NCBI GenBank assembly: GCA_041628225.1
Contig: JBFKPQ010000001.1
Location: forward strand, 85,597 to 149,596
Length of the DNA stretch: 64,000 nt
DNA from: Acidimicrobiia bacterium
GTDB taxonomy: Bacteria > Actinomycetota > Acidimicrobiia > Spongiisociales > JAENVV01
Direction of reading: 5' to 3'
The translations under genes and the position numbers were made by a program. Of the stretch, positions 1-15,133 are shown piece by piece; positions within the stretch are counted from its first letter, which is position 1; the number at the start of each line of letters is the position of its first letter. Under the pieces are notes generated by a model. The model ran no database searches. It worked only from the letters and a program-made list of their open reading frames with translations, and had not been told where the DNA came from.

Positions 1-223
1 CGGTGCCCATGTGGCGCTTGACCGAACGGACGGTGTGGTCGGGGTTCGTGATGGCTTGGCGCTTGGCGATTTCGCCGACGAGCACCTCGCCGTCCTTGAA
101 CGCGACCACCGACGGGGTGGTGCGTCCGCCTTCTGCGTTGGGAACGATGGTCGGCTCGCCGCCATCCAACGTGGCGATCACGCTGTTGGTGGTGCCGAGG
201 TCGATGCCTACTGCACGGGCCAT
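1..223 (-). CDS. dnaK: Molecular chaperone DnaK (Hsp70), N-terminal part; gene continues beyond window start
   Basis: Reverse-complement of 1-223 translates [74 protein letters not shown], the canonical DnaK N-terminus (GIDLGTTNS ATPase motif). Start codon is complement of cat at 221-223. Confidence 0.9.
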
Positions 224-289
224 GGTGGTGTACTCCTTGGTTGACCGCGGGCATGGCCCGCTTGTTCTGAGTCTTTGTGAAGTTTATAA

Positions 290-367
290 CTTGAGTGGTG
301 TACTGTCATATTCCCACGAATATGAGAAAGTTGAGCCAACTCGACTCAAGTTTGAGGGAATATTCCC
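290..367. promoter_or_regulatory. HAIR-like (HspR-type) operator with nested palindromes in the dnaK/lon divergent intergenic region
   Basis: gTTGAGC-caactcg-ACTCAAG at about 330-350 matches the HAIR consensus CTTGAGT-N7-ACTCAAG (right half perfect). A further CTTGAGT half-site lies at about 290-296. It is flanked by ATATTCCC (about 308-315) and GGGAATAT (about 356-363), part of the 12-bp palindrome GGGAATATTCCC. It sits between divergent dnaK and lon, both classical HspR targets in actinobacteria. Confidence 0.45.
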
Positions 368-409
368 GGGCTGTCAAGCCTTGAAACCGTTCCACACCCT
401 TGGAGCCGC

Positions 410-2716
<2,307 letters not shown>

Positions 2717-2720
2717 GCGG

Positions 2721-3521
2721 TCATGGGGCCAGGGCGCCGAGTCCGGTGACGAGCACGAGGCTGAGGCCGAGCACCACCTGTTGGGCACCGATGATGGCGG
2801 TACGGGGCACCGGCCTCCGCAAGAAGATCAGGTGAGCGGCGGCCAGACCGGCGACGGCCGTCATGCCCCACACGGAGACCAGGCTCGTCACCCAGGCGGC
2901 ACCTGCGAGCAGGACCGCGACGGCCTGCGCTCCGAGCCCCAATGCGATGGCTGCCGTCCCGCGTTTGGCGCGTTCGAGCTGTAGCCGCACGAAGGGGATC
3001 GTGGCGAGTGCTCGGGCCGCCGCAACGACCCACAGGCCGTAGGCGATCGACGCCGGTCGTCCACCGGCCAAGGCGATGGACGCGGCCACCGCCGCGATGC
3101 CGATGGTGCCCGCCAGTTCCGGGAGAAGCCGCCGGCTCCGGCTGCGTACGTCATACGAGAACGCCACCGCCACGAGCGGCGCGGCGAAGGCCAGCGGCAT
3201 CCAGAACGGGTGAGCGGACGCCATCGTTGCCACGCCGAGGGCGAAGGTCAGCGCGATGAGTTCCCCGGCCGCCACCCGCTCGGCGAGCGTCGTCCGGGGT
3301 AGCCGCCGACCTCGTCGACGATCGACGGCGGCCAGCTTGAGCGGCGTCCGGGCGACGAACGACAGGAGCGCGGCGATGCCGAGTGCCATGCCGGCGAGGC
3401 TCGGCGCCACGAGCAGGCCGAGCAAGACTGGTTCCAGCGTGAGACTCCAACCTCCATGCTCGGCAGGAATGGCCACGCGAGACCAGCGCAGATGATCCGC
3501 CGAGATCTCGAAATCGGTCAT
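2721..3521 (-). CDS. Integral membrane protein, about 8 predicted TM helices, unknown function
   Basis: C-terminal 266 aa of the long ORF 2721..4478 is strongly hydrophobic (MTDFEISADHLRW...GLGALAP). The N-terminal 319 aa of that ORF is Arg/Pro-rich wrong-frame text antisense to ogt, so the start was moved to the internal ATG (residue 320, ends 3521). Confidence 0.55.
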   Translation of the reverse strand: MTDFEISADHLRWSRVAIPAEHGGWSLTLEPVLLGLLVAPSLAGMALGIAALLSFVARTPLKLAAVDRRRGRRLPRTTLAERVAAGELIALTFALGVATMASAHPFWMPLAFAAPLVAVAFSYDVRSRSRRLLPELAGTIGIAAVAASIALAGGRPASIAYGLWVVAAARALATIPFVRLQLERAKRGTAAIALGLGAQAVAVLLAGAAWVTSLVSVWGMTAVAGLAAAHLIFLRRPVPRTAIIGAQQVVLGLSLVLVTGLGALAP

Positions 3522-3584
3522 GGGCCCGGTCAGGCTAGGACCGCCAGGTGAAGTTCTGGCTTCGGCGGCCGGTACGATTTCGGG

Positions 3585-4037
3585 GTGTTGGCCTACGACA
3601 GTCCGATCGGGACGCTCTACCTCACCGGGTCGGACGCCGGGTTGTCCGGCGTGTGGTTCGATCCGCCGGACGTGCCGGCACTCGAGGAGCGCAACGCCGT
3701 CAACGAGGCAGCCCGGCAGCTCGACGGGTACTTCGCCGGAACCAGGCATACGTTCGATCTGCCGCTCGCGCCGGCCGGAACCGAGTTCCAGCGGCGGGTG
3801 TGGACCGAACTCGAAGCGATACCGTACGGACACACGACGACATACGGTGACCTCGCCGCCCGGCTCGGTGACGTGAAGGCGACCCGGGCGGTGGGCCTTG
3901 CCAACGGCCGCAATCCGATCTCGATCATCGTGCCGTGCCACCGGGTGATCGGCGCCGACGGGTCCCTCACCGGGTACGGCGGCGGCCTCGACCACAAGCG
4001 CTGGCTCCTCGTGCACGAGGGAGCTCTCCTCGCCTGA
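3585..4037 (+). CDS. ogt: Methylated-DNA--protein-cysteine methyltransferase (O6-alkylguanine-DNA alkyltransferase)
   Basis: 150 aa with the active-site motif IVPCHRVIGADGSLTGYGGGL and helix-turn-helix region YGDLAARLG. GTG start at 3585. Confidence 0.9.
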   Translation: MLAYDSPIGTLYLTGSDAGLSGVWFDPPDVPALEERNAVNEAARQLDGYFAGTRHTFDLPLAPAGTEFQRRVWTELEAIPYGHTTTYGDLAARLGDVKATRAVGLANGRNPISIIVPCHRVIGADGSLTGYGGGLDHKRWLLVHEGALLA

Positions 4038-4070
4038 CACGCCGGTCCATCGAGCCGGTACGATCGTCCG

Positions 4071-4604
4071 GTGCGAACGCCCCGTAGCTCGATCCGGCTC
4101 CTCACCTATGTCGGGGTGGCAGGCCTGTCGTTCCAGGTGGCCCACTTCGGTGAGCACCTCGCCCAGTTCGCCTACTGGGTGGTCCATCCGACCTCGACGC
4201 CCTGGCTGTCGCCCTGGGCGGCCGCCTCGCGCGACGCGCTGTCGGCCGACCCGGCCATCGGGGTCGAGCTGCTTCACCTCCTGGGGAATGGGATCTTCCT
4301 GGGCGGGCTGCTGGCCCTGATGGCGGCGACGCGGCCAAGGGGCAATCCGATGCTGCGCATCGCCACCGTGCTGCAGGTCGTCCACGTCGCGGAGCACATC
4401 GCCCTGACGGTCACCCGAATGTTCTCGGGGTCGGCCATCGGGATCTCGACCGCGTTCGGCCTCCTGGAGGGCGGTCAACTCTCGTCATACCGCGTGTTGT
4501 GGCATTTCGTCGTCAACCTCATCGTGACCATCTATGCCGTCCGCGGACTCACTGGCGCGGTGCGCCGTGGGTTGGTCGGCGACCTCGTCACCGCCTCGAG
4601 GTGA
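4071..4604 (+). CDS. Hypothetical membrane protein
   Basis: 177-aa ORF with several hydrophobic segments (LLTYVGVAGLSF, GIFLGGLLALMAA, FVVNLIVTIYAV). Codon usage is consistent with neighbours. No recognisable motif. Confidence 0.5.
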   Translation: MRTPRSSIRLLTYVGVAGLSFQVAHFGEHLAQFAYWVVHPTSTPWLSPWAAASRDALSADPAIGVELLHLLGNGIFLGGLLALMAATRPRGNPMLRIATVLQVVHVAEHIALTVTRMFSGSAIGISTAFGLLEGGQLSSYRVLWHFVVNLIVTIYAVRGLTGAVRRGLVGDLVTASR

Positions 4605-4714
4605 TGCCCACAACCGCACAGGCGCGGTGGCAGGAAGCTTTCGTCTATCGTTCATGCCGCGGTCGTCGCACGACGCCGCTCCCGTGGGCGTCTTCGCCCC
4701 CCCAAAGGAGAGAT

Positions 4715-5866
4715 ATGAAGCACTTCAAATTCATCCGGATCCTCGCATCGCTCACAGCGATGATGATGATCCTGGCCGCTTGCGGCGGTGATACGTCCGA
4801 AGGGACGACGGCCACGACGGCCGCGGAAACGCCGTCGGACGACCGCGGCAGCATCTGGGTGCTGCTACCGGACTCGGCGTCGTCAGCTCGCTGGGAGACC
4901 GATGACCGTCGGTTCTTCAAGGCCGCTTTCGAAGCAGCGGGACTCACCGAGGGCGCATCCGACGGTTTCACGATCGTCAACGCCGAAGGTGACACCAACA
5001 CCCAGCAGGCTCAGGCCGAGCAGGCCATCAACGAGGGTGCCAGCGTCATTCTCATCGTGAACCTCGATTCCGCGTCGGCGGCCACGATCATCGACCAGGC
5101 CCGCGCGGCCGACGTCAAGGTGGTCGACTACGACCGTCTCACGATCGAGGGTCCCGGTGCCGACGTCTACGTGTCGTTCGACAATGTGCGAGTGGGCGCG
5201 ACGATGGCCGAGGTGCTCGAGCCGGCCATCGACGGTCTCGGCATCGACAACCCGCAAGTCGTCCTGCTCAACGGTGGACCGACCGACAACAACGCCACGC
5301 TGTTCCGCGAGGGATACGGCTCGGTGGCCGATGCCCGCGCCGCAGCCGGCGACTGGACCATTGCCGCCGAGCAGGCCGTCCCGGACTGGGACAACCAGCA
5401 GGCTCTGACGATCTTCGAGTCGATCCTGGCCGATCTGGACCAGAACGTCGACGCCGTCTTCGCGGCGAATGACGGCCTGGCGGGTGCTGTGGCTGCTGCC
5501 CTCCAGACGGCTGGTCTGGATCCTGTGCCGCTCTCCGGTCAGGACGCTACGGCAGCCGGCATTCAGAACATCTTGCTCGGTTGGCAGACGATGACCGTCT
5601 ACAAGCCGATCAAGGCCGAGGCCGAGGCTGCGGCGGCTGCCGCTCTGGCCCTGCAAGCCGGAGAGGACGTCACGGCCCTGACGGGTGACTTCGAGGTCAC
5701 CACGATCAACAACGGGACGAACGACCTTCCGTTCATCGCACTGACCCCGATCGCCGTTACGGCCGACAACGTGGCCGAGACCGTGATCGCCGACGGGTTC
5801 CGGACCGTCGAGGAGATCTGCACGGGCGAGGTCGAGTCCACCGACTTCTGCACGTCGCAAGGCTGA
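4715..5866 (+). CDS. D-xylose-type sugar ABC transporter substrate-binding lipoprotein (XylF-like, periplasmic binding protein type 1)
   Basis: Lipobox ILAAC after the signal peptide and an AAAGGAG RBS 6 nt upstream. Clear collinear similarity to E. coli XylF blocks: YDRL..YVSFDNVRVG, NGGPTDNNATLFREGY, SGQDATAAGIQNILLGWQTMTVYKP, NNGTNDLPFIALTPIAV..DGF. Confidence 0.85.
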   Translation: MKHFKFIRILASLTAMMMILAACGGDTSEGTTATTAAETPSDDRGSIWVLLPDSASSARWETDDRRFFKAAFEAAGLTEGASDGFTIVNAEGDTNTQQAQAEQAINEGASVILIVNLDSASAATIIDQARAADVKVVDYDRLTIEGPGADVYVSFDNVRVGATMAEVLEPAIDGLGIDNPQVVLLNGGPTDNNATLFREGYGSVADARAAAGDWTIAAEQAVPDWDNQQALTIFESILADLDQNVDAVFAANDGLAGAVAAALQTAGLDPVPLSGQDATAAGIQNILLGWQTMTVYKPIKAEAEAAAAAALALQAGEDVTALTGDFEVTTINNGTNDLPFIALTPIAVTADNVAETVIADGFRTVEEICTGEVESTDFCTSQG

Positions 5867-5874
5867 TGACGCGG

Positions 5875-5904
5875 ATGGGGGACCTCCGATCGGAGGTCCC
5901 CCAT
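5875..5904 (+). terminator. Perfect 30-nt GC-rich palindrome (attenuator/terminator-like hairpin) between SBP and ATPase genes
   Basis: ATGGGGGACCTCCGATCGGAGGTCCCCCAT forms a 13-bp stem with a GATC centre. No U-tract, as is usual for high-GC actinobacterial terminators. Sits 9 nt after the SBP stop. Confidence 0.5.
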
Positions 5905-5989
5905 CCCGTGTCCGACGAGGAGGGCTGACATCACAAACCAAGAGAGGCCGCTGCTCGACGGGAGAGGACTCTCGAAGAGCTTCGGCGCG

Positions 5990-6700
5990 GTGAGAGCGCT
6001 CTACAAGGTCGATTTCGACGTGTTTCCTGGCGAGGTCAACGCCCTGGTGGGCGACAACGGAGCCGGGAAGTCCACCTTGATCAAGGGACTGGCCGGGATC
6101 TACCAATTCGATGACGGAGAGATCCACTTCGAAGGTAACACCGTGCAGATCCATGAACCCAAGGACGCATCCCGGCTCGGCATCGAGGTCGTGTACCAGG
6201 ACCTCGCCTTGGCTGACAACCTAGATGTCGTCGCCAACATGTACCTGGGACGCGAAGAGGTCAACGGTGTGATCCTCAACGAGGCGCTCATGGAGCGAAC
6301 GGCTCGCGAAACGCTCGACAGCCTCGCCGTCACCACGCTCCAATCCGTCCGGCTTCCCGTCGCAGGCCTGTCCGGCGGCCAGCGGCAATCCGTGGCCGTT
6401 GCCAAAGCAGTGATGTGGAACTCCAAGGTCGTCATCCTCGACGAGCCGACCGCCGCCCTCGGAGTTGCCCAAACCCGCCAGGTGCTCGACCTCGTGAAGC
6501 GACTTTCCGAGCGTGGACTCGGCGTTGTGCTCATCTCCCACAACCTGCACGACATCTTCGAGGTGGCCGATCGCATCACGGTGCTCCGCCTCGGACAACT
6601 CGTCACCGTCTTCAATCGCCGCGAGACCAACCAACAAGAAGTGGTCCACGCCATCACGGCCGGCAAGCTCGAAAACGTCCCGGGAATGGCAGACGGATGA
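5990..6700 (+). CDS. Sugar ABC transporter ATP-binding protein, single NBD (CUT2/XylG-like)
   Basis: Walker A GDNGAGKST, signature LSGGQRQ, Walker B VVILDEPTAALG, H-loop ISHNL. Only about 240-250 aa, one NBD. Conserved N-terminal text (ERPLLDGRGLSKSFGAV) continues in frame upstream of the GTG at 5990 back to about 5942 with no ATG/GTG/TTG, so the true start is unresolved. Confidence 0.8.
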   Translation: MRALYKVDFDVFPGEVNALVGDNGAGKSTLIKGLAGIYQFDDGEIHFEGNTVQIHEPKDASRLGIEVVYQDLALADNLDVVANMYLGREEVNGVILNEALMERTARETLDSLAVTTLQSVRLPVAGLSGGQRQSVAVAKAVMWNSKVVILDEPTAALGVAQTRQVLDLVKRLSERGLGVVLISHNLHDIFEVADRITVLRLGQLVTVFNRRETNQQEVVHAITAGKLENVPGMADG

Positions 6701-7938
6701 CCCAACCGGACGCCCCGAAAGGCAGCTTCGGGCTCGACGCCCAGAGCGCTTCGGTGGGCGATTATCTGCGCGCTCGTCTCGTGGCGATCCGATCGGGTGA
6801 TGTCGGCTCGGCTCCGATCATCTTCGGTCTCGTCGTGATCGTGGTGATCTTCCGGCTGCTCAGCGAGAACTACCTCACCGCCTTCAACGTCGTCAACATG
6901 ATGCTCCAAGCCGGCGGCATCGCCACGATCGCCATCGGTGTCGTGTTCATCCTGCTGATTGCAGAAATCGATCTGGCCATCGCGTACAACTCGGCCGTGG
7001 CGGGCGTCCTCATGACGCTGCTCCTCCGACCCGATGGGGCGGATTGGCCGTGGTTCTTGGCCATCCCCGTCGCCCTCGCCGCCTCGACGTTGATCAGCCT
7101 CGCCATGGGAGTGATCGTCACCCGCGCCGGTGTTCCCTCGTTCGTCGTCACCCTCGCCGGAAACCTGGCGCTCAGCGGTGTCGTGTTGATTCTCACCACC
7201 CAGTTCTCGACGGCCGGCACGATTCGTATCCAGGATCCGGTTGCGATCGGTGTCGCCGGTTACTTCCTGCCCTCGATCTGGTCTTGGATCTTGCTGGCAG
7301 TCACCGTGCTGGCGTTTGCGTTCATTCAGTTCCGAAACGTGCAAGTGAGGAGGAGCCGGGGCCTTTCCATCACGCCGATCCCCGTCCTGGTGACGCAACT
7401 CGTGCTCCTGTCGGTCGTGGGTGCCGTTTTGGTCTCCTACTCAAACACCGATCGAGGCGTCCCTCTGCTGGCGGTCATCGTCGCCGGCTTCCTCGTCGTG
7501 TGGTCGTTCGTGCTCAACCGCACTCGCTTCGGGCGTCACGTGTTGGCGGTGGGTGGGAATCCCGAGGCCGCCCGCCGAGCCGGTATCAGCGTTGAACGCG
7601 TCCGGCTCGCCGTGTTCATGGTGGCCGGCTTCATGGCCGGGTTCGGTGGCATCGTGTTGGCGTCGCGCCTTCGGTCGGTGTCCCCGAGTCAAGGCGGCGC
7701 CTCCCTACTGCTCGACGTCATCGCGGCGGCAGTGATCGGCGGGACCAGCCTGTTCGGTGGGCGGGGCAAGGTCAGTTCCGCCCTGCTCGGCGCGCTGGTC
7801 ATCGCGCTCATCAACAACGGAATGGATGGACTGGGCCTCAACTCGGGTATCAAGTTCGTGGTGACGGGCTTGGTTCTGCTGGGAGCCGTGCTCCTCGACG
7901 CGCTGTCCAGCCGAAGGGCCCGTCAGTCGGGCCGATGA
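6697..7938 (+). CDS. Sugar ABC transporter permease (XylH/RbsC-like, CUT2 family)
   Basis: 413 aa, multi-TM, with typical CUT2 permease layout. ATG overlaps the ATPase stop (ATGA). Confidence 0.85.
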
Positions 7939-12204: not shown

Positions 12205-13776
12205 ATGACCGACGAAGCTGCTGCCGAAGACACCCGAGGCACGACCACCTCGGCGTTCGGGGTGGGCAAGCGGGAGAACCACGATGCTTCGGCGTTCTAC
12301 GCCCGGTTCACCGCTCCCGAGGTGTCGGACGACGACACGCTGGGCCCACGTCCGAGCGAGCTGGAGCTGCCCGATCCGCCGTGCATCGTCGGCGACGCCC
12401 GCAACATGGCGGCGGTGCCCGACGGTTCGGTGGCGTTGGTCGTGACGTCACCGCCGTACTTCGTGGGAAAAGAGTACGAGCAGGCCGTGATCGGCACGGG
12501 TGAGGTCGCCCGACCCGAGGTGCCGCGGTCGTACGTCGAGTATCTCGAGATGCTGCGCGACGTCTTCGCCGAGTGCAAACGGACGCTCGAGCCGGGCGGA
12601 CGGATCGCCGTCAACGTCGCCAACCTCGGCCGCAAGCCGTACCGGAGCCTGTCCGCCGATGTCATCCGCATCCTCCAAGACGACCTCGGACTGCTCCTGC
12701 GCGGCGAGATCATCTGGCAGAAGGCCGACGGAGCGTCCGGATCGGTGGCGTGGGGATCGTTCAACAAAGCCACCAACCCGGTGCTGCGCGACATCACCGA
12801 GCGGGTCATCGTGGCCTCGAAGGGTCGGTTCGATCGAGCTCGGTCACGCCAGCAGCGCATCAAGGACGAGTACCCCCACGAGAACACCATGCCGGTGGAC
12901 GAATTCATGGAGGCGACCCTCGACGTCTGGCGTATCGATGCGGAGAGCGCCCGTCGGGTCAAGCACCCGGCACCCTTTCCGGTGGAGCTGCCGCGCCGGC
13001 TCATCGAGCTGTACACGTTCGAAGACGACCTGGTTCTCGACCCGTTCCTCGGCTCCGGCACCACACTGGTCGCGGCGGTCCGGTCGGGACGGCGAGGCGT
13101 CGGTTACGACCTGGACCCGGACTACGCGGAGATCGCAGCGCATCGCTACCGGGCCGAGCAGAAGCGGCATCGGCGCCAGCGTCAGACCGAGAGCATCCAC
13201 CAGGAGCGCCTGGCCCTCATGCTGCCGCCAGAGTCGACGCCCGAAGAGCGTGCCGACCACTTCCAGCGTCGCGCCAGCAAGGAAGGGAAGAAGGCTCAGG
13301 ACCTCGCCAAGCAGGTCCTCGAAGAAGCCGGCTTTCAGATCGTCGACGAGGCCTACAAACTGCCGCGCTCGGGAGTTCACTTCAACTTCCGCGTCGTCGA
13401 CGCCAACGGCGATCGCGACTACCTCGTCGATGTATCCGGCGCCTTCACGACTGCCCGCCCCGGCCTGTTGCGCACGGACACCCTCTGGAAGACGCTGGGC
13501 CGCGCCCACGTGCTCAAGTCACTCGACGAAGAAGCCCGCCTGCTCATCATCACATCGAACCTCCCGCGGCCCGGGTCCGACGGTGACAAGGCGTTGCACG
13601 CGGTCGGGCCGGGCAGCGTGTGGGATGCCATCGAGATGTTCGATGCCGACGGCGTCAACCGCCTCGAGTCGTACGCCGAGGGCCACGTCGACCAACTCCC
13701 TGGATTCTGGACGGAAAGCGAACTCGAGAGCCGTCGCGACGAGCAGGCGTCCCGCTACTGGCACGACGAAGAATGA
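12205..13776 (+). CDS. Beta-class DNA methyltransferase (SPPY motif IV, N4-cytosine/N6-adenine type) with about 180-aa uncharacterised C-terminal domain
   Basis: Motif IV VVTSPPYFVGKEY precedes motif I LVLDPFLGSGTTLVAA (beta-class order). Catalytic region ends near residue 340. Residues about 345-523 (..GFQIVDEAYKLPRSGVHFNFRVVDANGDRDYLVDVSGAF..LLIITSNLPRPG..) have no motif I recognise. A 6-bp inverted repeat ATCGTG-ccag-CACGAT overlaps the ATG. Confidence 0.85.
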   Translation: MTDEAAAEDTRGTTTSAFGVGKRENHDASAFYARFTAPEVSDDDTLGPRPSELELPDPPCIVGDARNMAAVPDGSVALVVTSPPYFVGKEYEQAVIGTGEVARPEVPRSYVEYLEMLRDVFAECKRTLEPGGRIAVNVANLGRKPYRSLSADVIRILQDDLGLLLRGEIIWQKADGASGSVAWGSFNKATNPVLRDITERVIVASKGRFDRARSRQQRIKDEYPHENTMPVDEFMEATLDVWRIDAESARRVKHPAPFPVELPRRLIELYTFEDDLVLDPFLGSGTTLVAAVRSGRRGVGYDLDPDYAEIAAHRYRAEQKRHRRQRQTESIHQERLALMLPPESTPEERADHFQRRASKEGKKAQDLAKQVLEEAGFQIVDEAYKLPRSGVHFNFRVVDANGDRDYLVDVSGAFTTARPGLLRTDTLWKTLGRAHVLKSLDEEARLLIITSNLPRPGSDGDKALHAVGPGSVWDAIEMFDADGVNRLESYAEGHVDQLPGFWTESELESRRDEQASRYWHDEE

Positions 13777-14093
13777 ACGGCGTCGCTTACGCGGTCGTCC
13801 GGACTGACCCACCGGAGGTGTACCTCGCCGACGACGTCGACATCCTCCAGCGGTTGCTCGCACTCGAACTCGTCGCCAACACCGACCCGAGAACGCTGAG
13901 CTCCGACGGTGCCTCCGACCTACGGTCGGCCCTCCTCGACGAGCGCTGGGCCGACGCCGTCGTCACCTGGATGGATCTGGCCGATACGCCGGTCGATGTG
14001 TACACGTTCCTGCCGGTGTTCTCGCGCGACGAGCTGCCGTCGGAGTTGATCGGCGCCCAGTTGCAGTTCCGCCGGCTGTTTCGCGACGCCTGA
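13773..14093 (+). CDS. Hypothetical small acidic protein (106 aa, no Lys, net charge about -12)
   Basis: ATG overlaps the MTase stop (ATGA). Continuous ORF with coding-like composition. No recognisable motif. Confidence 0.5.
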   Translation: MNGVAYAVVRTDPPEVYLADDVDILQRLLALELVANTDPRTLSSDGASDLRSALLDERWADAVVTWMDLADTPVDVYTFLPVFSRDELPSELIGAQLQFRRLFRDA

Positions 14094-14095
14094 CC

Positions 14096-15133
14096 GTGCC
14101 GACGCTCCGCACCGAGATCACGGAGATCGTCACCGGTCTCGGCATGTTCGACTACCCCGACCTGGGCCACGCCCTCGAGGTTCGCCCACGCCACTTCGCC
14201 AACGTGCCCGACGACGCGTACGAACGATTGGCCGCCGCGTACCGGTCGGGCACGGATGCGGGCCTCATGGCCCACGCCTGGGAGAACGGCGTCCGGTTCG
14301 CTCGCTCGATGGAGGGCCTGCGCGGCCGACCTCCGTGGCTCGTCGAGTGGAAGGGAAGCCACAAGCCGCCCGGCTACGAGCAACTGCCCGCGGACCTGCG
14401 CGTCGACCACGTGTACCTGGTGTCGTGCAAGTACGGGTCGAACATCCTCACCAATTCCTCGCCGGCCAACCTGTTCGACCGTGCCCTCGGCGACCGGGCC
14501 GACGGCACCGGAGACTGGTTCGCCGATGTGGCGCCCGACGCCTACCAACAGCTGTACGACGCCTGCCGTCCGCTCGTCGAGATGCGATTGCCCGACCACG
14601 TCACCGACCTCGACCAGAGCGACCGGGATGTGCTGAAGGCCGCCATGCCACGACGTCTGCAAGGTGAGGCACTCGTGGCGTACCGCGGGTTCGCCGACGC
14701 GGTGGCGGCAGCTTCGTCGGACCGGTGGTCGGCCGCGCTGCCGAACAGCCGCGCCCGAGAGCAGATGGTGTGGCGCCTGCTCCGTCTCGAAGCCGCCCCG
14801 TACTTCGTGCTGGGCGAATCGGCCGACAGCCGAGCGTTGGCCTACCGGGTGTCGACACCGTGGGACCTACGGGCGACCTACCGGTTCCGGTCGTTCACCC
14901 AGTGGGGCGAGACCGACCGCGGCCAGCCGGTGGTGGGGTGGCGGGCCGTGTTCCAAGACTTGGGGTCGGGTATCGAACGCACCGTCGAGGGCCACGTCGA
15001 GGTGCGATGGAGTCACGGCAAGTTCGCTCGACCACCGGAGGCGAAGGTGTACCTCGATACGCCGCACCATCAAGTCCCCGGCTACGTTCCCCTCGTCCTC
15101 CCGCGTGGCGACAACCTGTTCGGTGGGTCATGA
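14096..15133 (+). CDS. Hypothetical protein (345 aa) with a possible PD-x(n)-SxK nuclease-like motif
   Basis: GTG start 2 nt after the previous stop, and its stop overlaps the next ATG. Contains LPADLRVDHVYLVSCKYG, reminiscent of PD-(D/E)xK variants with SxK. That assignment is inference only. Confidence 0.55.
   Translation: MPTLRTEITEIVTGLGMFDYPDLGHALEVRPRHFANVPDDAYERLAAAYRSGTDAGLMAHAWENGVRFARSMEGLRGRPPWLVEWKGSHKPPGYEQLPADLRVDHVYLVSCKYGSNILTNSSPANLFDRALGDRADGTGDWFADVAPDAYQQLYDACRPLVEMRLPDHVTDLDQSDRDVLKAAMPRRLQGEALVAYRGFADAVAAASSDRWSAALPNSRAREQMVWRLLRLEAAPYFVLGESADSRALAYRVSTPWDLRATYRFRSFTQWGETDRGQPVVGWRAVFQDLGSGIERTVEGHVEVRWSHGKFARPPEAKVYLDTPHHQVPGYVPLVLPRGDNLFGGS

Follow-up and report, generated by a model that had tools for sequence, protein, structure and literature searches.

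The window analysed here is a stretch of 64,000 nucleotides from an Acidimicrobiia bacterium (GTDB lineage Bacteria; Actinomycetota; Acidimicrobiia; Spongiisociales; JAENVV01), corresponding to positions 85,597 to 149,596 of the forward strand of contig JBFKPQ010000001.1 in GenBank assembly GCA_041628225.1. Three consecutive genes on this strand encode proteins of 523, 106 and 345 amino acids (aa), and identical gene calls are present in the public record GCA_041630215.1 (Table 1). The first gene, MTase-X, codes for a DNA methyltransferase (MTase) of the β class fused to a C-terminal domain that we refer to as X, and it is followed by the genes for a small acidic protein, small106, and for p345. 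We report that X is a real, conserved and hitherto unannotated nuclease-fold family found in a new architectural and genomic setting. Judged by the predicted fold, DNA binding and DNA cleavage are both candidate functions of X.

The N-terminal part of MTase-X matches Pfam PF01555 over residues 76-312 (E 7.6e-40; 137.6 bits compared to a gathering cut-off of 26.7). The closest solved relative, TTHA0409 (PDB 2zie), aligns to residues 62-318 (E 6.6e-34), and the PADLOC MTase_II profile PDLC03350 covers residues 9-329 (E 2.7e-83; profile positions 6-307 of 312 used). Motif IV (SPPY) precedes motif I (DPFLGSG), which is the order that defines the β class. Since SPPY and DPFxGSG are invariant among 71 full-length orthologues from different species, the MTase domain is, as judged by these motifs, catalytically intact. 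N4-cytosine enzymes typically carry SPPY as motif IV. In a metaepigenomic survey, CGCG and BAAAA methylation was reported from all sampled marine Acidimicrobiia metagenome-assembled genomes (MAGs), together with orphan MTases of BAAAA specificity (PMC8919816). Taken together, the type of motif and the class-wide methylation make CGCG a candidate target of the MTase, which we offer as a lead only. Plasmid matches to the MTase domain are merely 32-36% identical and give no clue to specificity. With respect to the nucleotide composition of the window, CTAG is strongly under-represented (observed/expected 0.26), and CGCG and TCGCGA are mildly so (0.80 and 0.56, respectively); a window of 64 kb is too small for inferring a restriction target from these values.

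Domain X was modelled with AlphaFold2 using a 72-sequence alignment, in which 19 columns are invariant. The model has a mean predicted local distance difference test (pLDDT) score of 91.2 and a predicted template modelling score (pTM) of 0.85, with the elements in the order α1-β1-β2-β3-α2-β4-α3-β5-α4-α5. Foldseek ranked XisH proteins first (probability 1.0), followed by BstEII, R2 retrotransposon proteins, SfsA and BsoBI. Two independent structure comparisons, Foldseek being one, agree on the PD-(D/E)xK fold of restriction endonucleases, and we regard this model-based assignment as firm. The family comprises 175 word-indexed homologues, or 821 representatives at 50% identity when an exhaustive profile search is used (E≤1e-3). 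Overall, X is acidic with an isoelectric point (pI) of 5.2.

Sequence searches with X gave no match in Pfam, NCBIfam, PADLOC, PHROG or PDB, none of 18 family members matched a Pfam model, and a family-profile search of PDB returned no solved relative. YraN (NF009151) was hit below threshold and by α1-β1 of X alone (E 0.12; 12.7 bits, cut-off 124). A match of the X profile to the HECT C-lobe of SMURF2 (E 0.009; 46 residues) was rejected as probably due to chance; it is the lone PDB match below E 0.01 and falls on positions 13621-13722 (X residues ~473-506), where the pattern is FFDAIEM..RL..Y..G..PLPGF. X is an autonomous domain on a flexible linker, and it founds a family that has so far gone without annotation. 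In the original prediction, made from the sequence alone, this part of the protein was described as an uncharacterised domain fused to the MTase, loosely reminiscent of a PD-(D/E)xK-like or another nucleic-acid-binding fold and matching no motif that could be named, and FNFRVVDANGDRDYLVDVSGAF and LLIITSNLP were pointed out. Both lie within the C-terminal part of the 523-aa open reading frame (ORF) product, and the two structure comparisons bear out the tentative fold guess. The alternating β-like stretches and acidic residues correspond to β2 and β3 of the X core sheet. Three acidic residues of X, D409, D425 and D474, are invariant among the 71 orthologues. Moreover, the region is neither poorly conserved nor disordered, and it matches no family of passive target-recognition or dimerisation domains of β-class MTases, CcrM's C-terminal domain being SAND-like (PMC6787082). 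That a further domain follows the MTase was thus correctly seen, but its border had been set too late: the extents of the PF01555, 2zie and PDLC03350 matches place the end of the MTase at approximately residue 320, not 340, and a variable linker separates it from the core of X.

Table 1. Features of the MTase-X cassette and of the adjacent gene (window positions; residues refer to the MTase-X protein)
Feature	Residues	Positions	Strand	Basis or remark
Whole MTase-X gene	523 aa plus stop	12205..13776	+	ORF list; identical call in GCA_041630215.1
β-class N6/N4 DNA methyltransferase domain	1-320	12205..13164	+	PF01555, PDB 2zie, PADLOC MTase_II
Motif IV, SPPY	82-85	12448-12459		
Motif I, DPFLGSG	279-285	13039-13059		
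Variable charged linker	~321-345 (~25 aa)	13165..13239	+	Low occupancy and conservation before F353; α1 of the AlphaFold2 model starts at fragment residue 8 (residue 346)
Domain X, restriction-endonuclease fold (PD-(D/E)xK-like)	~346-510 (~165 aa)	13240..13734	+	Predicted model, structure comparisons
Most conserved motif of X, DVSGAFTTARPGLLRTDTLWKTLGRA, DVSGAFTxxRxGLxRTDTxWKxLGRA	409-434	13429..13506	+	Column statistics
small106, acidic 106-aa protein (pI 4.1)		13773..14093	+	ATG overlaps the MTase stop codon (ATGA)
p345, 345-aa protein		14096..15133	+	Very large unannotated family (thousands of members); candidate nuclease partner
Glyoxalase_6 gene, 140 aa		15130-15552	+	Probably outside the cassette

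Catalysis by the PD-(D/E)xK fold relies on a Glu on α1, an Asp at the start of β2 and (D/E)-x-K on β3 (PMC3424549). In the X model, β2 (fragment residues 54-60) and β3 (67-73) form a hairpin, and the canonical positions were derived from its register in the predicted secondary structure and not from coordinates. By this register N394 would face D409, and S411 would be on the same face as D409, such that the canonical sites would be E360, N394 and D409-V-S411. Among 260 family sequences, N accounts for 69%, D for 12% and S for 8% of the residues at position 394. An acidic residue (D or E) stands at 409 in 98% and E at 360 in 78%, and 411 is occupied by S, A, T or G but in no case by Lys. The catalytic signature of the fold, i.e. 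the β2 Asp and (D/E)-x-K on β3, is accordingly not found in X, which lowers the likelihood of catalysis without being decisive because variants with a migrated Lys are known. Two positions further along are conserved to the same degree as 409 or nearly so, namely 425 (D/E in 98%) and 429 (K in 85%, R in 13%). The divergent members of the family retain 409, 425 and 429, and their residues at 360, 394 and 411 shift towards A, S, G or P. Nine charged residues, R356, D409, R418, R423, D425, K429, R433, D474 and R486, are invariant in the 71 orthologues.

The most conserved motif (Table 1) spans the end of β3, a loop of lower confidence and the start of core helix α2, and holds D409, S411, R418, R423, D425, K429 and R433. 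At fragment residues 71-90 the pLDDT of the model is ~67, and such a loop would suit a segment that becomes ordered upon partner binding. D425 opens core helix 2, 14 residues past the 'K' position of the signature, and K429 is located one helical turn on. In Cfr10I, NgoMIV and Bse634I the catalytic Glu on this helix has the same spacing of 14 residues. Movement of catalytic residues to core helix 2 has been described both for the Lys of Pa4535, giving the motif PD-EXX-K, and for the Glu of Cfr10I (PMC3424549).

To study the genomic context we scanned one genome per species; at least 562 genomes encode a relative, and the best 80 loci were examined. Almost all of these belong to Acidimicrobiia, including Microthrix. 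Two loci with typical Acidimicrobiia-like cassettes (L062 and L075) are in MAGs labelled Chthoniobacterales and Verrucomicrobiales, which could be due to mis-binning or horizontal transfer. MTase and X share one frame in 77 of the 79 loci where both parts were found, and the two exceptions look like frameshifts. Homologues of both downstream genes follow in 59 of the 80 loci, the 106-aa gene alone in 15 (including marine Acidimicrobiaceae and 'Microthrix sp.' UBA MAGs), the 345-aa gene alone in two and neither gene in one; three loci are too short to tell. Mean identities to the proteins of the window are 71% for the MTase, 62% for X (range 52-86%), 60% for small106 and 56% for p345. The flanking genes vary, e.g. 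the pyrophosphatase gene upstream in the window is absent elsewhere, and searches of viral contigs and plasmids revealed no X relatives.

A small106 homologue adjoins MTase-X in 76 of the 80 loci; it is always a standalone protein of ~105 aa, is confined to Acidimicrobiia and gave no family or structure match in library scans. For p345, scans of Pfam, NCBIfam, PADLOC and PHROG gave nothing usable; the protein is weakly HinP1I-like, and its invariant residues include D100, D104-H105 and S110-C-K112. The X motifs are also intact in MTase-X proteins that lack small106 as a neighbour (L021, L086) or lack both partners (L022, L028), and relative to the MTase the constraint on X is equal in a clade that lacks p345 and in clades that have it. 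Successive genes of the operon have overlapping start and stop codons, and a scan for promoters and terminators gave nothing above background. The Glyoxalase_6 gene overlaps the p345 stop by 4 nucleotides; none of the related loci has a homologue in the flanks that were retrieved, and the gene is probably not part of the cassette.

Two other layouts were found beside the one in the window (layout A). In layout B (L091-L093; L091 positions 4054-6922) an X-less MTase of 316 aa and of the same subfamily is followed by an overlapping gene encoding X and a C-terminal domain of ~140 aa (Cdom), and then by p345; the island also holds Dcm and Vsr, NA37 and RelA_SpoT genes. In layout C (L002-L005; L002 positions 77-4049) a 495-aa MTase-X is followed by a 173-aa protein, a 304-aa protein that consists of a second X and Cdom, and a p345 homologue (48% identity). 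In L002 a few genes separate this arrangement from a downstream gene for a TrwC relaxase, and L094 (1754-4499) shows the same arrangement without the p345 homologue. Matches of Cdom to DUF3574 are weak, and in a profile comparison Cdom and small106 appear unrelated (probability <1%). Hence X is a cassette module whose place is always between the MTase and the genes that follow; it can be joined to its upstream or to its downstream neighbour, and a position in cis to the MTase is not obligatory. The original prediction had treated X as a feature of a single protein; our data rather show a module of a conserved multi-gene cassette, which in layout B is on a separate polypeptide. Its stronger proposal, a fused effector that would give a single-chain 'modification-plus-something' enzyme, is a conjecture: the canonical Asp and Lys are replaced throughout the family by N/D...D-x-S/T/A, and nuclease activity cannot be assumed.

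The position of X in these layouts raises the question whether it serves as a protein-protein assembly module that docks small106 (or Cdom) and p345 to form an MTase-effector complex, similar to type III Mod-Res or heteromeric type II systems. That X is fused to the upstream partner in layout A and to the downstream partner in layout B represents a Rosetta-stone pattern, and the overlapping codons of the operon are also in keeping with this idea. Nevertheless, we consider it unlikely, given that X is equally constrained where p345 is missing and persists in the absence of small106, and that Cdom is unrelated to small106. Comparison of the X and p345 profiles detected no similarity and gave nothing to suggest that X is a duplicate of p345. 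A role of X in serving p345 alone was ruled out by the equal constraint in the p345-less clade.

Several database entries suggested additional architectures. The standalone X proteins P0010 and P0038 were rejected as a frameshift and a scaffold gap of Ns, respectively, and the X-small106 fusion P0018 as a frameshift at 2x coverage. Database entries at L001/L038, L006, L014 and L090 that resemble standalone X, X-small106 fusions or truncated MTases are due to frameshifts, to a scaffold gap of Ns or to contigs of 2x coverage, and such artefacts inflate 'architecture' counts for the family. It could be argued from the loss of the canonical catalytic residues that X is the decaying and functionless remnant of a once-fused restriction enzyme. 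This appears highly improbable in view of the invariant columns, the mean X identity over the 80 species-level loci, the nine invariant charged residues and the confidently folded model, and since the truncated and standalone copies that we checked were assembly artefacts.

An active nuclease or nickase is a more serious alternative, possible if on balance somewhat unlikely. The site would be rearranged, with D409 on β3 and D425 together with the relocated K429 on core helix 2, assisted by E360 and N394. This would make MTase-X a restriction-modification enzyme in a single chain and of a new layout, i.e. a β-class MTase with a C-terminal nuclease; small106 may in that case regulate it, and p345 may supply a second subunit or an activity of its own. 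The fold and the nearest structural neighbours, which are bona fide restriction enzymes, speak for cleavage, as do the unusually high conservation of X and the three residues themselves, invariant among the orthologues and acidic/acidic/basic in 98% of the family. Cfr10I and Pa4535 are documented cases in which the catalytic Glu or Lys, respectively, has moved to core helix 2 (PMC3424549). In layout B the X gene comes directly after, and overlaps, the gene for the X-less MTase, in an island with Dcm, Vsr and RelA_SpoT, and a translationally coupled small acidic protein such as small106 resembles nuclease-inhibitor pairs. However, both the β2 Asp and the β3 Lys are missing, and in divergent members A, S, G or P can replace the residues at the assisting positions 360 and 394 as well as at 411, and R can replace K429. 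D425-x3-K429 could simply represent a helix N-cap and an intrahelical salt bridge, and restriction enzymes are not usually conserved throughout a class in such varied chromosomal surroundings. Moreover, small106 is no essential antidote; this role was ruled out by the four loci that lack it and have MTase-X with intact motifs. A more specific version, which we find rather unlikely, is that MTase-X is a single-chain restriction-modification or methyl-directed nicking enzyme that uses D409, D425 and K429. On this view it would, unlike ordinary restriction systems, have been inherited across the class Acidimicrobiia together with an acidic partner, and this would point to a function in chromosome maintenance, e.g. 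strand discrimination or repair in a lineage that lacks MutHLS, rather than in simple phage defence.

The interpretation that we favour, with a probability of roughly 40%, is that X is a non-cleaving, DNA-engaging 'pseudo-nuclease' that aids the MTase and perhaps ties it to its partners. The former nuclease cleft would grip DNA beside the MTase; as predicted, this cleft would be lined by R356, K362, R418, R423, K429, R433 and R486 together with the conserved flexible loop, and X may in addition physically couple the MTase to the downstream cassette proteins. All seven of these basic residues are invariant or nearly so, although the domain is otherwise acidic. The pattern is that of a non-catalytic derivative, since the β3 Lys is never present and positions 360, 394 and 411 drift, and the exchange of K429 for R in 13% of the sequences is more typical of phosphate binding than of general-base catalysis. 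Furthermore, the MTase is the one constant partner of X, as the two are in the same frame in nearly all loci, and some lineages do without small106 or without p345; the equal constraint in the p345-less clade argues that X is independent of p345. We also count in favour of the pseudo-nuclease a distribution that appears housekeeping-like, being class-wide and with none in viral contigs or plasmids. The methylation motifs reported as class-wide in marine Acidimicrobiia (PMC8919816), the invariant motifs of the MTase and the precedent of CcrM, discussed below, point the same way.

Several observations weigh against a non-cleaving module. The acidic residues D409, D425 and D474 are invariant in the orthologues, which is not expected for a plain backbone binder, and D425 has the spacing of the helix-borne catalytic Glu of Cfr10I, NgoMIV and Bse634I, with K429 one turn on. 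In layout B, the same MTase subfamily lacks X, which forms the N-terminal domain of the next gene product; restriction genes classically sit there, and this shows that X need not be in cis. Pa4535 offers a structural precedent for a catalytic Lys displaced to core helix 2 (PMC3424549). Finally, relative to its MTase, X is far better conserved (62% and 71% mean identity to the protein of the window, respectively) than is the corresponding domain of CcrM (~14% and ~46%; PMC6787082).

Irrespective of its function, X defines a conserved domain family with a confident structural model and no annotation in any current library, and the three-gene cassette of MTase-X, small acidic protein and 345-aa protein is present in hundreds of species of Acidimicrobiia, a class that is abundant in oceans, soils and wastewater and almost uncultured. 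For the class-wide CGCG and BAAAA motifs reported from marine members (PMC8919816), no mechanism beyond methyltransferases is known to have been proposed. If X merely helps to hold DNA it would represent a second and independently evolved answer to the problem that CcrM solves by its SAND-like domain, and if it cuts, a restriction-modification enzyme of new architecture whose catalytic lysine has been relocated.

Among known systems, type IIC/IIG and type ISP enzymes (MmeI, DrdV, LlaBIII) have an N-terminal nuclease with a canonical D...ExK, a γ-class MTase and a C-terminal recognition domain. MTase-X differs from the type IIC/IIG layout in having a β-class MTase followed by a C-terminal X with a non-canonical motif. 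Compared to type II restriction endonucleases, X is small (~165 aa), has no obvious separate recognition subdomain and is distributed class-wide and not patchily. BsoBI and the PspGI/NgoMIV/Cfr10I/Bse634I groups keep the β2 Asp and the β3 Lys, whereas X has N394 and S411 at these positions. The motif PD-EXX-K of Pa4535 (PDB 1y0k) resembles the (N/D)...D-x-S...K429 of X (PMC3424549). XisH (PF08814; PDB 2okf, 2inb), the first-ranked structural neighbour, is a minimal PD-(D/E)xK protein of cyanobacteria with 10-17% identity to X in structural alignments. It stands alone, is linked to the excision of DNA elements and is neither fused to nor beside an MTase, unlike X, which is fused; the 18 X family members gave no sequence or profile match to PF08814, and X belongs neither to XisH nor to YraN/UPF0102.

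The closest functional parallel to the reading that we favour is CcrM of Caulobacter (PDB 6pbd), a β-class MTase that is conserved vertically in a whole bacterial class. Its C-terminal domain, carried on a short linker, binds DNA non-specifically, is needed for activity and holds the non-target strand in the MTase dimer (PMC6787082), and it is because of these two last properties that we liken the suggested DNA grip of X to it. MTase-X is not itself a CcrM, as it scores 55.7 bits with the NCBIfam CcrM equivalog NF050803 (cut-off 830) and has a nuclease fold in place of the SAND-like C-terminal domain. The CcrM domain is ~90 aa, SAND/PWWP-like and only ~14% identical between orthologues (PMC6787082), whereas X has ~165 aa, a nuclease fold and 52-86% identity.

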